From: an uncultured Rikenellaceae bacterium | GTDB lineage: Bacteria > Bacteroidota > Bacteroidia > Bacteroidales > VadinHA17 | Length of the DNA: 64,000 bases | Direction: 5' to 3' | Assembly: GCA_964637415.1 (NCBI GenBank) | Contig: CAZWUB010000003.1 | Location: 269 to 64,268 of the forward strand | Shown here: positions 6,756-35,134 of the stretch, one piece after another | Numbering within the stretch: the first letter of the stretch is position 1 | Layout of the letters: each line of letters begins with the position of its first letter | Made by a program: the position numbers and the translations under genes | The notes under the pieces: model-generated | Seen by the model: the letters and a program-made list of their open reading frames with translations, nothing else | The model's database searches: none | Told to the model about the DNA's origin: nothing

Positions 6756-7202
6756 CTATTCCGCAACAATTTCAAAATCAATATCCACCTTCACATCCCT
6801 GTGAAGTTTGATGATTGCTTTATATTTCCCGATCTCTTTGATCTGATCTTCCGGAAGTGATATGTTTTTACGGTCAATTTCAAATCCCTTCTCTCTGAGC
6901 CCCTCCGCAATCTGAATTGTGTTTACTGATCCGAAGATCTTGCCTGAGGAACTTGTTTTTGCGCCTATGACAAGTTTGAGATCGGCCATCTTTGTTGCAA
7001 GCTCTTCAGCAACAGTTTTGATCTTCTCTTCCTTATGAGCTCTCTGCTTAAGATTCTCAGCATGCATCTTCCTGGCTGACGGCGAGGCTGCTACTGCAAA
7101 ACCCTTGGGTATAAGGTAATTTCTGCCATATCCATCCTTAACATGTACCAGGTCATCTTTCTGACCCAGTTTTCTGACATCCTGTAATAATATAATTTCC
7201 AT
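6756..7202 (-). CDS. rplI: 50S ribosomal protein L9
   Basis: MEIILLQDVRKLGQKDDLVHVKDGYGRNYLIPKGFAV is the canonical L9 N-terminus. 148 aa. Confidence 0.95.
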   Translation of the reverse strand: MEIILLQDVRKLGQKDDLVHVKDGYGRNYLIPKGFAVAASPSARKMHAENLKQRAHKEEKIKTVAEELATKMADLKLVIGAKTSSSGKIFGSVNTIQIAEGLREKGFEIDRKNISLPEDQIKEIGKYKAIIKLHRDVKVDIDFEIVAE

Positions 7203-7214
7203 ACCTGTTCCTCC

Positions 7215-7484
7215 TTATTTTAATAGGTCAGTTACATACGGAAGAAGGGAAATATGACGTGCTCTTTTAACTGCCTGGGCCACTTTTCTCTGATATTTGA
7301 GTGAAGTACCTGTTAATCTCCGCGGGAGTATCTTCCCCTGGTCGTTCAGGAATTTCTTTAAGAACTCGGGATCCTTGTAATCGATATATCTTATCTTGTT
7401 CTTTTTGAAGCGACAGTACTTCTTCTTCTTAACTTCGACTGTCGGTGGAGTCAAATACCTGATTTCTGATTCATTCTGTGCCAT
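7215..7484 (-). CDS. rpsR: 30S ribosomal protein S18
   Basis: Reads [61 protein letters not shown]. 89 aa. Confidence 0.95.
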
Positions 7485-7487
7485 ATC

Positions 7488-7841
7488 TTATTCCTCCTTT
7501 ACTTTACCTGATTCTTTTTGTTTTCTTTTCTTCTCTGCATATTCAACAGCAAATTTATCCATTCTGAAGGTGAGGAATCTTATGATCCTCTCATCCCTCC
7601 GGTACTGGACTTCAAGCTTGTCAACAATTGTTCCCGGGCCTTTGAACTCAAGGAGATAATAAAAGCCGGTCGATTTTTTCTGAATAGGATAGGCCAGTTT
7701 TTTCAGGCCCCAGTTCTCTTCATGAACGATCTCACCTTCATTCTCGGTGATGACCTTCTTGAATTTCTGTACCGCTTCCTTCATCTGGTTCTCAGATAAA
7801 ACGGGAGTTGCAATGAAAACGGTTTCGTACTGGTTCAACAT
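7488..7841 (-). CDS. rpsF: 30S ribosomal protein S6
   Basis: Reads [19 protein letters not shown]...[13 protein letters not shown]. First gene of the rpsF-rpsR-rplI run, 3 nt before rpsR. Confidence 0.93.
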
Positions 7842-8151: not shown

Positions 8152-9897
8152 ATGGACAACTTTATTGTTTCAGCAAGAAAATACCGCCCGGCAACATTCG
8201 ATATGGTTGTTGGTCAGGATACTATTACAAATACGCTGAAGAGCGCAATCAGGAACAATCATCTGTCGCAGGCTTATCTTTTCTGCGGACCCAGGGGAGT
8301 AGGAAAAACAACCTGTGCACGCATACTTGCCAAAACAATTAACTGTTTTAATCTGAAAGAGAACGGCGAAGCATGCGATGAATGCGAATCCTGCCAGTCT
8401 TTCAATACCCTGAGGTCATTCAATATACATGAACTTGATGCTGCTTCAAACAACAAGGTTGAAGATATAAGAAGCCTTAACGACCAGGTGCGGATACCTC
8501 CGCAGATAGGAAAATACAGCATATATATAATCGATGAGGTTCACATGCTGTCGGCATCAGCTTTTAATGCCTTCCTGAAAACACTTGAGGAACCACCACC
8601 CCATGCAATTTTTATACTGGCAACAACTGAAAAACATAAGATCATCCCTACAATTTTGTCGAGATGCCAGATATTTGACTTTAACAGGATAAGGGTTGAG
8701 GATATTATCAACAGGTTATCATACGTTGCAAAGAACGAGTCGGTTGTTGCTGAAGAAGAAGCACTGCACATTATTGCCCAGAAAGCCGACGGTGCCTTAC
8801 GTGATGCCCTTTCAATATTTGACCAGATTGTAAGCCTTGGTGGTAAGAACATTACCTACAGGGATGTAATAGAGAACCTTAATGTTCTCGATTATGAATA
8901 CTATTTTAAAACAATCGACGGAGCTATCAAAGGTGATATATCAACTGTCCTTGTAACTTTCAATGAGATACTGGCAAAAGGATTTGACGGATATAATTTT
9001 CTTTCAGGGCTCACAAGTCATCTGCGTGATCTTCTTGTAAGTAGGGATGAAGCAACATTAAGACTGATTGAAACCACTCCGGCTGTCCGGAAGAGATACT
9101 TGCAGCAGACAGCAGAATGTCCGGCTGATTTTCTTTATAAAGCCCTCGAACTGGGTAGCTATTACGATATAAATTACCGGAACAGTAAAAATCCCAGGCT
9201 TCACGTTGAATTGTTCCTTATAAGGCTGTCCCGAATATTGACTGAAAACGGTTCTGACCCTGAAAAAAAAAAGCCTTCAGGTAAGCAGCAGATAAGTGAA
9301 CATAATGAAATTCCTCTTCCATCCCGGTCTGAAATAATCCGGCAGACTGAAGACAAGAAAGGTGATAATGTTGGTAATCAAGATAGTACGACCAGTATAC
9401 ATACTCCGGTTATCGAAAGACCGACAAGAACCTTTTCAATAAAGGATGTTATAACAGACACAGCAAGACCGGCAGTTGAAAGATCAGAGCCGGTCACCGG
9501 CACAAACACCGGAGCATCCGATGGTGTTAAGGAGGAATTCAATGAAGAAACATTTTTTGTTGCCTGGAATGAATTCCGGAATAGCCTTCAAGGCGAAGGC
9601 GTACGGATAATAAGCATGTTCAAGTCTATAAATCCAAGGCTGGAAGATGATCATACAATTATTATCCCTCTGACAAATGCCGCCCAGAAGGACATTTTCT
9701 CGGAAAATTACAGGCAAAGGCTTCTGTCATGGTTCAGGGACAGATTTCTTGTTGAGGATCTCGATATTGAAACAGCTGTCGATTTGTCGGAGACAAATGA
9801 GGCTCCCTATACAGATGAACAGAAATATAATTATCTTCAGGGAAAGTATCCTGTAATGAATGATTTTAAAAAAACATTCAATCTTGACTTTACCTGA
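8152..9897 (+). CDS. dnaX: DNA polymerase III subunit gamma/tau
   Basis: Reads ARKYRPATFDMVVGQD...FCGPRGVGKTTCARILAK, then a Zn module CDECESCQSF and the Walker B IYIIDEVHMLS. 581 aa with a low-complexity linker after about residue 370. Confidence 0.95.
   Translation: MDNFIVSARKYRPATFDMVVGQDTITNTLKSAIRNNHLSQAYLFCGPRGVGKTTCARILAKTINCFNLKENGEACDECESCQSFNTLRSFNIHELDAASNNKVEDIRSLNDQVRIPPQIGKYSIYIIDEVHMLSASAFNAFLKTLEEPPPHAIFILATTEKHKIIPTILSRCQIFDFNRIRVEDIINRLSYVAKNESVVAEEEALHIIAQKADGALRDALSIFDQIVSLGGKNITYRDVIENLNVLDYEYYFKTIDGAIKGDISTVLVTFNEILAKGFDGYNFLSGLTSHLRDLLVSRDEATLRLIETTPAVRKRYLQQTAECPADFLYKALELGSYYDINYRNSKNPRLHVELFLIRLSRILTENGSDPEKKKPSGKQQISEHNEIPLPSRSEIIRQTEDKKGDNVGNQDSTTSIHTPVIERPTRTFSIKDVITDTARPAVERSEPVTGTNTGASDGVKEEFNEETFFVAWNEFRNSLQGEGVRIISMFKSINPRLEDDHTIIIPLTNAAQKDIFSENYRQRLLSWFRDRFLVEDLDIETAVDLSETNEAPYTDEQKYNYLQGKYPVMNDFKKTFNLDFT
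9263..9272 (+). other. A10 homopolymer containing the slippery heptamer A AAA AAG inside dnaX (candidate recoding or transcriptional-slippage site)
   Basis: In frame the sequence reads CCT GAA AAA AAA AAG CCT. The -1 frame gives GCC TTC AGG TAA (stop at 9282..9284). The +1 frame gives CTT CAG GTA AGC AGC AGA TAA (stop at 9293..9295). The position is codon ~371, at the end of the gamma-like part. Confidence 0.5.
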
Positions 9898-9956: not shown

Positions 9957-10445
9957 ATGTTAAAAAAGAAAGTAGAAGATCTCTGCAACAGGCAGGTTGA
10001 AAGAGAAGGTTACTCTTCAAACCTTTATCTCGCAATGGCTTCATGGGCCGAAACAAATGGTCTGGCAGGCATCGCCGCCTGGCTGTATGCCCAGGCTGAG
10101 GAAGAAAAAGTACATATGCTCAAGTTCGTAAAATATATCAATGAGCGTGGCGGGAAAGCAGTTATTCCGGCATTCAAGAAACCACCTGAAGATTTCAAGG
10201 ACGTGGTGGAAATGTTCGACGAAGTATTAAAACACGAGCAGTTCATTTCAGCAAGCATAAATGATATTGTCGACCTTACACTGTCAGAAAAGGATTTCAG
10301 TACACATAATTTCCTCCAGTGGTTTGTCGCAGAACAGGTTGAGGAAGAATCTTCTGCCCAGTCTATTGTAGATAAACTGAAACTGGGAGGAAAGAATATT
10401 ATGTATCAGATGGACAGGGATATAATGAGGCTCAGGGAACAATAA
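9957..10445 (+). CDS. ftnA: Non-haem ferritin
   Basis: 162 aa. Reads QVEREGYSSNLYLAMASWAE...AQAEEEKVHMLKFVKYINERGG...EQVEEE, which are ferroxidase-centre residues. Confidence 0.9.
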   Translation: MLKKKVEDLCNRQVEREGYSSNLYLAMASWAETNGLAGIAAWLYAQAEEEKVHMLKFVKYINERGGKAVIPAFKKPPEDFKDVVEMFDEVLKHEQFISASINDIVDLTLSEKDFSTHNFLQWFVAEQVEEESSAQSIVDKLKLGGKNIMYQMDRDIMRLREQ

Positions 10446-34953: not shown

Positions 34954-35134
34954 ATTTCACTTTCTGCAAAGATAGTCATAAGGTGATTTTTTTTTTGATT
35001 AAAATCTGTTAATTATTGAATCCTGTCAGTTTGAAAACCGATCTTTAAATGTATTTTTATAGGCTTTGAAACATTGATGAATCCTTTTAGAAACAGAATA
35101 ATTAAATTGAATAGAAATCAAAAATCCTTAAACT

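Follow-up and report, generated by a model that had tools for sequence, protein, structure and literature searches.

An A10 run at the gamma/tau boundary of a Bacteroidales dnaX gene is a probable programmed transcriptional-slippage site

The 64,000-nucleotide stretch analysed here (the window; contig CAZWUB010000003.1 of an uncultured Rikenellaceae bacterium) carries a dnaX gene in which ten consecutive adenines (A10) lie at the boundary between the clamp-loader core, common to the long product tau and the short product gamma, and the C-terminal region found in tau only. In Thermus thermophilus dnaX, slippage on a run of nine A's has been shown experimentally and yields the products in a 1:1 ratio (Larsen et al. 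2000, as described in PMC1088944 and PMC5009743). The window gene and the Thermus gene have much in common: tau is encoded in one uninterrupted open reading frame (ORF), a run of A's marks the boundary, stops lie nearby in both non-zero frames, ribosomal stimulators are absent, and a change in mRNA length that is not a multiple of three leads to gamma in Thermus and would do so here. The differences are that the window run is A10 and not A9, that its host is a Bacteroidales bacterium of 41% GC and not a GC-rich thermophile, and that slippage is experimentally established in Thermus and predicted from sequence comparison in the window. Nucleotide-level conservation, described below, completes the set of Thermus-type features found here, alongside the single tau ORF, the run of at least nine A's at the end of the core, and the stops in both frames. 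We put at roughly 70% the probability that the A10 run serves for programmed transcriptional slippage as in Thermus thermophilus dnaX.

Within the phylum, the motif itself has been described before. Antonov et al. (2013) predicted recoding at A10 for dnaX genes split into two ORFs in Bacteroidota and sister groups, their Fig. S3 listing Flavobacterium johnsoniae, F. psychrophilum, Cytophaga hutchinsonii, Capnocytophaga ochracea, several Chlorobi, and Coraliomargarita (PMC3711429). This two-ORF class, recovered by us in 25 of 103 loci, shares with the window the A10 motif, its position at the boundary, and the inferred transcriptional realignment; it differs in that gamma is there the default and tau depends on recoding, the reverse of the window, where gamma would be the form that needs it. 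The in-frame version (78 of the 103 loci) went unreported in that paper because GeneTack could detect only the frame-broken version, and in our full-text literature searches neither this in-frame majority nor the hairpins upstream of the dnaX run were described. What we propose for the window dnaX is a known mechanism in a new host, the A10 of the frame-broken class in this phylum being already in the literature.

Two further systems frame the comparison. Escherichia coli dnaX has the same boundary, an in-phase A_AAA_AAG heptamer, and an early stop in the −1 frame; unlike it, the window has neither a Shine-Dalgarno (SD)-like stimulator upstream nor a stem-loop downstream, and the window-type run is extended to 10, is conserved by length rather than by phase, and has its +1 frame closed as well. 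In the Roseiflexus IS630 insertion sequence (IS), a nascent-RNA hairpin, GCGGGCgcaaGCCCGC, immediately 5′ of a T5C5 tract stimulates slippage (Penno et al. 2015; PMC5009743). A stem-loop likewise adjoins the 5′ edge of the slippery run in 36% of the dnaX loci related to ours; the window itself, unlike the Roseiflexus element, has no such hairpin, and a pure A-run slips unaided in Thermus and E. coli, whereas T5C5 is strictly hairpin-dependent.

The features of the window gene on which the argument turns are as follows (coordinates are those of the window).
8152..9897, + strand: dnaX, with a full-length, tau-like frame-0 product of 581 amino acids (aa) (ORF list; NCBIfam NF011531).
8152..9234, + strand: clamp-loader core domains I–III, residues 1–361, common to the long and short products (Pfam).
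9263..9272, + strand: homopolymer of ten A's at which RNA polymerase is proposed to slip; codons GAA AAA AAA AAG, E371–K374 (sequence and conservation).
9282..9284, + strand: TAA of the −1 frame, ending a 377-aa product (...EKKKAFR) (sequence and simulated mRNAs).
9293..9295, + strand: TAA of the +1 frame, ending a 380- or 381-aa product (...SLQVSSR) from A9 or A12 mRNA (sequence and simulated mRNAs).

The identity of the gene is clear: the protein matches the dnaX profile NF011531 with 759 bits against a cut-off of 685, and an exact-protein look-up found it on five public contigs. Pfam places PF13177 at residues 22–179, PF22608 at 185–231, and PF12169 at 241–361, so that the run starts 10 codons beyond the end of domain III. 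Codons 370–374 read CCT GAA AAA AAA AAG. Past the run, the −1 frame reads GCC TTC AGG TAA, with its stop 3 codons off, and the +1 frame reads CTT CAG GTA AGC AGC AGA TAA, with its stop 6 codons off, while frame 0 stays open for another 207 codons; the gene is therefore not of the two-ORF layout. When mRNAs with altered run lengths were simulated, A9 gave 380 aa (...EKKSLQVSSR), A10 gave tau, A11 gave 377 aa, A12 gave 381 aa, and A13 gave tau with one additional lysine (582 aa); a −1 ribosomal shift gives a 377-aa protein identical to that from A11. The original prediction, made from the letters of the window, had the position and codons of the run and both shifted-frame readings right in every detail, and its estimate of truncated products ending about 375–381 residues in, just past domains I–III, agrees with the values obtained here.

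The mechanism we propose runs as follows. As RNA polymerase transcribes ten template T's, its entire RNA–DNA hybrid of 9–10 bp (PMC5009743) would consist of rA:dT pairs, and the nascent RNA could re-register by one or more bases, leaving a pool of A10 mRNAs together with A11, A9, A12, and so forth. The A10 or A13 messages would be translated into full-length tau (581 or 582 aa), the A11 messages would reach the TAA at 9282 and yield a gamma-like protein of 377 aa, and the A9 or A12 messages would reach the TAA at 9293 and yield the forms of 380 or 381 aa. All of the short forms would retain clamp-loader domains I–III and lack the tau-only C-terminal region. That slippage occurs, that the polymerase rather than the ribosome is its site, and how efficient it is, we infer from comparison among sequences.

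Statistics confined to the window contribute nothing to this reading, and we dropped them as support, A10 not being unusual in so AT-rich a stretch: three A10/T10 runs occur against 1.81 expected, and at least three appeared in 27 of 100 shuffles. The dnaX run is the only 10-nucleotide (nt) homopolymer of the window to lie within a gene, the other two (A10 at 993–1002 and T10 at 34987–34996) falling outside ORFs of at least 50 aa. Since the count in the window is not significant, the case for the run rests on its position and on its conservation in relatives.

That conservation was followed in two independent samples of 80 loci each, one of GTDB species genomes and the other of metagenome contigs; the latter turned out broad, a generic motif having saturated the scan for close relatives, and served as an independent replicate. 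The end of domain III was located in each locus by tblastn, leaving about 147 analysable relatives. About 70% of these Bacteroidota dnaX loci have a run of A9–A11 at the gamma/tau boundary, no more than about 25 codons from where domain III ends (in L020 the A10 lies about 90 codons further downstream). The longest A-run at the boundary is sharply bimodal, being 2–7 in 45 loci, 8 in none, and 9–11 in 101, and it is exactly A10 in 87 of the 101. Runs of at least ten A's number 99 in the 40.8 kb of boundary windows, against 3 in the other 723 kb of these loci. The phase of the run, by contrast with its length, is free: A10 starts in phase 0 in 14 cases, in phase 1 in 52, and in phase 2 in 22, and the base that follows is C, G, or T with about equal frequency. 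Codon usage does not account for the uninterrupted runs, since only 73% of the lysine codons elsewhere in the sampled dnaX genes are AAA.

The stops beside the run are conserved as well. Each closed frame meets its stop soon after the run, at a median of 2 codons, 90% of them within 5, against a median of 9 codons and 36% within 5 for control out-of-frame positions elsewhere in the same genes (Mann–Whitney p=7e-50). Taken one at a time, the −1 frame has its stop at a median distance of 1 codon (99% of 78 loci within 5), and the +1 frame at a median distance of 4 (79% within 5, compared with 36% for the controls). The length of the run, its position, and both out-of-frame stops are strongly conserved at the nucleotide level, which points to a constraint on the nucleotides and not on the protein; the run is real and conserved, and it is almost certainly functional.

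The same holds at closer range. In an alignment of 120 homologues of at least 69% identity from the window's clade, E-K-K-K is nearly invariant amid an otherwise hypervariable linker. For the 12 homologues whose DNA was obtained through exact-protein look-ups, the spelling GAA AAA AAA AAG is found in 6 of 6 EKKK relatives, and with the window in 7 of 7; given the gene's own usage (AAA 19 : AAG 14, GAA 33 : GAG 12), that exact spelling has p~0.1 per gene. The exceptions to EKKK are one EKKN gene with A10, two EKKT genes, one EKKR, and one GKKK with A9, and the other GKKK gene with A8. Both shifted-frame stops lie within 6 codons in all sampled clade genes other than L169, in which the +1 stop is 20 codons off, and they stay in place although the flanking codons vary. 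The original prediction had proposed to ask whether relatives keep the uninterrupted run and the two nearby out-of-frame stops in spite of a free choice between AAA and AAG, and in both the clade and some 70% of the phylum sample they do.

A second line of evidence comes from the frame in which tau continues after the run. Among the 103 loci this is frame 0 in 78, the window included, −1 in 21, and +1 in 4, so that in the remaining quarter the two products have exchanged places: gamma is in frame 0 and tau needs a change of frame. In these split loci, frame 0 ends 0–5 codons past the run and an ORF of 200–230 codons goes on in the other frame. They are not homopolymer miscalls, because A10 is mostly still present there; the two-ORF loci inspected singly had mostly A10 and in a few cases A11 (L102 and L134). 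As tau can be obtained in these genomes only by recoding at the run, the arrangement implies that the motif must work efficiently in the two-ORF members of the phylum. Split loci of this kind are likely mis-annotated as pseudogenes or as two genes. Tau lies in the −1 frame in L017, L028, L029, L034, L035, L044, L065, L071, L072, L078, L079, L094, L102, L103, L134, L141, L143, and L145–L147, and in the +1 frame in L019, L041, L074, and L124; variants of the +1 direction do not appear in the accessible part of the 2013 description (PMC3711429). In two further loci, L048 and L054, frame 0 ends about 20–60 codons past domain III and an ORF of about 230–250 codons follows in the +1 frame. Neither a homopolymer nor an obvious slippery motif lies near the break, for which misassembly or another kind of recoding signal may be responsible.

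Some relatives also have an accessory element, a hairpin, on the 5′ side of the run. Across loci, the 40 nt upstream fold more stably than dinucleotide shuffles (mean z=-0.95, p=1.6e-10), and a hairpin with a free energy of −8 kcal/mol or lower ending at most 2 nt from the first A is found in 36% of loci, while the rate among 1030 control positions is 4.5% (p=3e-12); with duplicates collapsed into sequence clusters, 21 of 76 have it. The stems are of 6–10 bp and end 0–2 nt before the run, and those of different clades have no sequence relationship. In the Flavobacteriales-type clade, pairing in register holds for 85% of cells, as opposed to 36–60% when the registers are slid; double-sided changes occur at two pairs, and the covariation score is higher than in 498 of 500 shuffles. 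The window and most of its near relatives have no upstream hairpin. As for the sequences, the stem of the F. johnsoniae-type dnaX is CCTCTATCA...TGATGGAG followed by A10; L057, L056, L064, L111, L115, L138, L145–L147, and L156 have CCTCTATCAnnTTTGATGGAG before A10, and L019 has GCTTGTGTCAACTCACAAGCGC before A10; further examples are L045, L120, L141, L040, L011, L015, and L060. The 3′ arm of the Flavobacteriales hairpin also reads GGAG, an SD-like sequence immediately 5′ of the run.

Of the other ways in which these observations could arise, the one that survives best, and which we nevertheless regard as unlikely, is −1 programmed ribosomal frameshifting of the E. coli type, in which a uniform mRNA would give the 377-aa protein ending at TAA 9282. 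The site in question is the heptamer noted in the original prediction.
9267..9273, + strand: A_AAA_AAG heptamer, in phase, which may be a secondary site for a −1 shift of the ribosome (sequence).
The heptamer is indeed in phase in the window, in all six sampled EKKK relatives, and in two GKKK relatives, but it did not prove to be the conserved feature, being in phase in only 20 of the 103 loci phylum-wide. An advocate of the ribosome could reply that a run of at least nine A's holds an in-phase A_AAA_AAA heptamer in whatever phase it starts, and that the −1 stop is the most tightly conserved feature of all. Against this, seven A's would be enough for the ribosome, yet the length is held at 10 and is 8 in none of the loci of the phylum sample. 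Conservation bears on a length of about 10, in agreement with the 9–10 bp hybrid of the polymerase, and not on a 7-nt motif of fixed phase, and this favours slippage. So does the early closure of both alternative frames, since the −1 stop by itself would serve a −1 ribosomal shift, and so does the occurrence of frame changes in both directions, four loci needing a change in the +1 direction for tau; shifts in both directions were also the argument of Antonov et al. (PMC3711429) for transcriptional realignment over ribosomal frameshifting.

The known stimulators of ribosomal frameshifting are absent too, as the original prediction had noted for the window. No GGAG, GAGG, or AGGA occurs in the 25 nt upstream of the run (9238–9262), and the 60 nt downstream (9273–9332), with a minimum free energy of −4.6 kcal/mol and z=+2.04, fold worse than their shuffles; across loci, there is no excess of downstream structure (p=0.10). 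Bacteroidota in any case make little use of SD pairing, which we count against ribosomal frameshifting. The lack of structure downstream, in the window and across loci, and of an SD-like element upstream of the window run favours slippage, as does the upstream hairpin in 36% of relatives, which is the layout of the Roseiflexus element. A search for tRNA genes in the window, where a single tRNA-Lys (UUU anticodon) for both AAA and AAG, as in E. coli-type frameshifting, would have helped in judging how slippery the heptamer is, found none. A 6-bp inverted repeat, CCTGAA/TTCAGG (9259–9264 and 9276–9281), brackets the A-run of the window; the 61 nt spanning it show no gain in folding over shuffles (z=-0.39). 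The repeat is identical in L162, reads CCGGAA/TTCCGC in L161 (a U–A to G–C change), and is absent in remoter members of the clade. A −1 shift of the ribosome on these A's may nonetheless account for a minor share of the short product, above all in the window's clade.

Proteolysis of tau in the linker, with the A-run incidental, is a documented source of gamma in Caulobacter crescentus, where ClpXP is responsible (PMC5009743), and the linker past the run, being variable and of low complexity, is in keeping with it. It does not account for a run conserved at the nucleotide level, for the pair of stops out of frame, or for the two-ORF layouts, and we give it little credence for run-bearing genes; it may be relevant to the lineages without the run.

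Equally improbable is that nothing is recoded at all, tau being the sole product and the run doing no more than encoding a conserved E-K-K-K patch of the linker. The near-invariance of EKKK in the clade speaks for such a patch, and A10 encodes at least two lysines in every phase. A protein-level constraint of this sort, however, should tolerate interruptions, 27% of lysine codons being AAG, yet the run is all-or-none, with 9–11 A's or at most 7; the residues around the two lysines depend on the phase, KKK is absent from lineages lacking the run, the tau frame is broken exactly at the run in 25 loci, and the out-of-frame stops are strongly enriched beside it. Least credible of all is phase variation in the DNA, a hypermutable tract toggling cells between tau-only and gamma-only genotypes by slippage in replication: 10-nt homopolymers are prone to this and both frame layouts occur among species, but tau is required for replisome function, so a gamma-only genotype should not last without correction at the RNA level, the length is 10 in the great majority of run-bearing loci and in most of the inspected two-ORF genomes, and the window's protein and 4 near-identical cluster members, on independent contigs, all have 581 aa with no truncated variant, which is a weak argument for a stable tract. 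The lysine patch and phase variation were both rejected on the bimodal length, the independence of phase, and the A10 (occasionally A11) of the inspected two-ORF genomes.

Transcriptional slippage on the A10 run, which the comparative evidence supports as the original prediction leaned towards it, has its own difficulties, and several observations weigh against it. The clade data alone cannot separate it from −1 ribosomal frameshifting, because the in-phase A_AAA_AAG is as conserved there as A10. The −1 stop, equivalent to the gain of one A, keeps more closely to its place than the +1 stop does, an arrangement compatible with either mechanism. The 40 nt upstream of the window run have z=+0.61, with no hairpin adjoining the run. 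The predicted proteins of 377, 380, and 381 aa have no exact match in public assemblies, a result that is uninformative about RNA, and full-text literature searches turned up neither RNA nor protein evidence for recoding of a Bacteroidota dnaX, nor experiments on the two-ORF genes of Fig. S3 in PMC3711429. Finally, about 30% of the Bacteroidota loci have no run, so the presumed slippage device is dispensable, and it appears to have been lost in these lineages. Run-less loci (L018, L025, L026, L031, L032, L036, L049, L052, L061, L063, L066, L084, L087, L089–L093, L096, and L097) are mostly from gut and rumen Bacteroidales (Bacteroidaceae, Rikenellaceae, and others), and have an uninterrupted tau ORF, a homopolymer of at most 7 at the boundary, and no KKK.

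Beyond the run, the gene continues into the region that the short forms would lack.
9274..9894, + strand: tau-only part, residues 375–581, made up of a variable linker, the EIPLPSRSEIIRQ motif, low-complexity sequence, and an alpha/beta domain at the C terminus (alignments, AlphaFold2).
The EIPLPSRSEIIRQ motif (9307–9345; consensus PLPSKSEIIRQ) is strongly conserved in the otherwise variable tau-only linker of the window's clade, and may serve some partner in the replisome as a docking peptide. The C-terminal alpha/beta domain (9514–9894) was modelled by AlphaFold2 with a mean predicted local distance difference test score (pLDDT) of 78.7; on homologues it carries the precomputed Pfam label PF28557 (DUF8439), and it has no sequence match in the PDB. 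Its fold matches are weak, the best having E=4.8e-3, and include DnaA domain I (4tps), the DUF721 domain of DciA (7ykm), and the N-terminal domain of DnaA (2e0g); all of these weak neighbours are KH-like and bind replication proteins. No solved tau domain V is among the 50 fold matches listed. To judge from its position, this may be the tau-specific part of the protein that binds polymerase or helicase.

In the genome, dnaX is flanked on the opposite strand by rpsF-rpsR-rplI (6756–7841, − strand) and followed by a ferritin-like gene (9957–10445, + strand). The rpsF-dnaX neighbourhood is retained in most of the sampled close relatives, and the downstream neighbour alternates among ferritin, a PAS/histidine-kinase gene, and secA.

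If our reading is right, dnaX in most Bacteroidota probably yields two replisome subunits per gene, and genome annotation is silent on the second. For the frame-broken dnaX genes, about a quarter of the sampled run-bearing loci, the label of pseudogene is unwarranted, and homopolymer “errors” at the dnaX run in transcriptome data may be real. The strict A10 length would be a readout of RNA polymerase slippage in a phylum that does not rely on Shine-Dalgarno initiation. More tentatively, Bacteroidota dnaX might be a phylum-wide, modular slippage cassette comprising an A-run of hybrid length, two out-of-frame stops, three interchangeable layouts, and, in about one-third of lineages, a terminator-like nascent-RNA hairpin next to the run that tunes efficiency. 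Were this true, polymerase slippage assisted by a hairpin, so far known only from an IS element, would have its first instance in an essential cellular gene, and the gamma:tau ratio would be an evolvable, lineage-specific setting. The part most worth pursuing is the combination of strict A10, three layouts, lineage-specific hairpins, and loss in gut Bacteroidales: with tau as the default, gamma as the default (−1 or +1), the hairpin present or absent, and the device lost in gut Bacteroidales, the phylum offers a natural series on the role of gamma outside E. coli.

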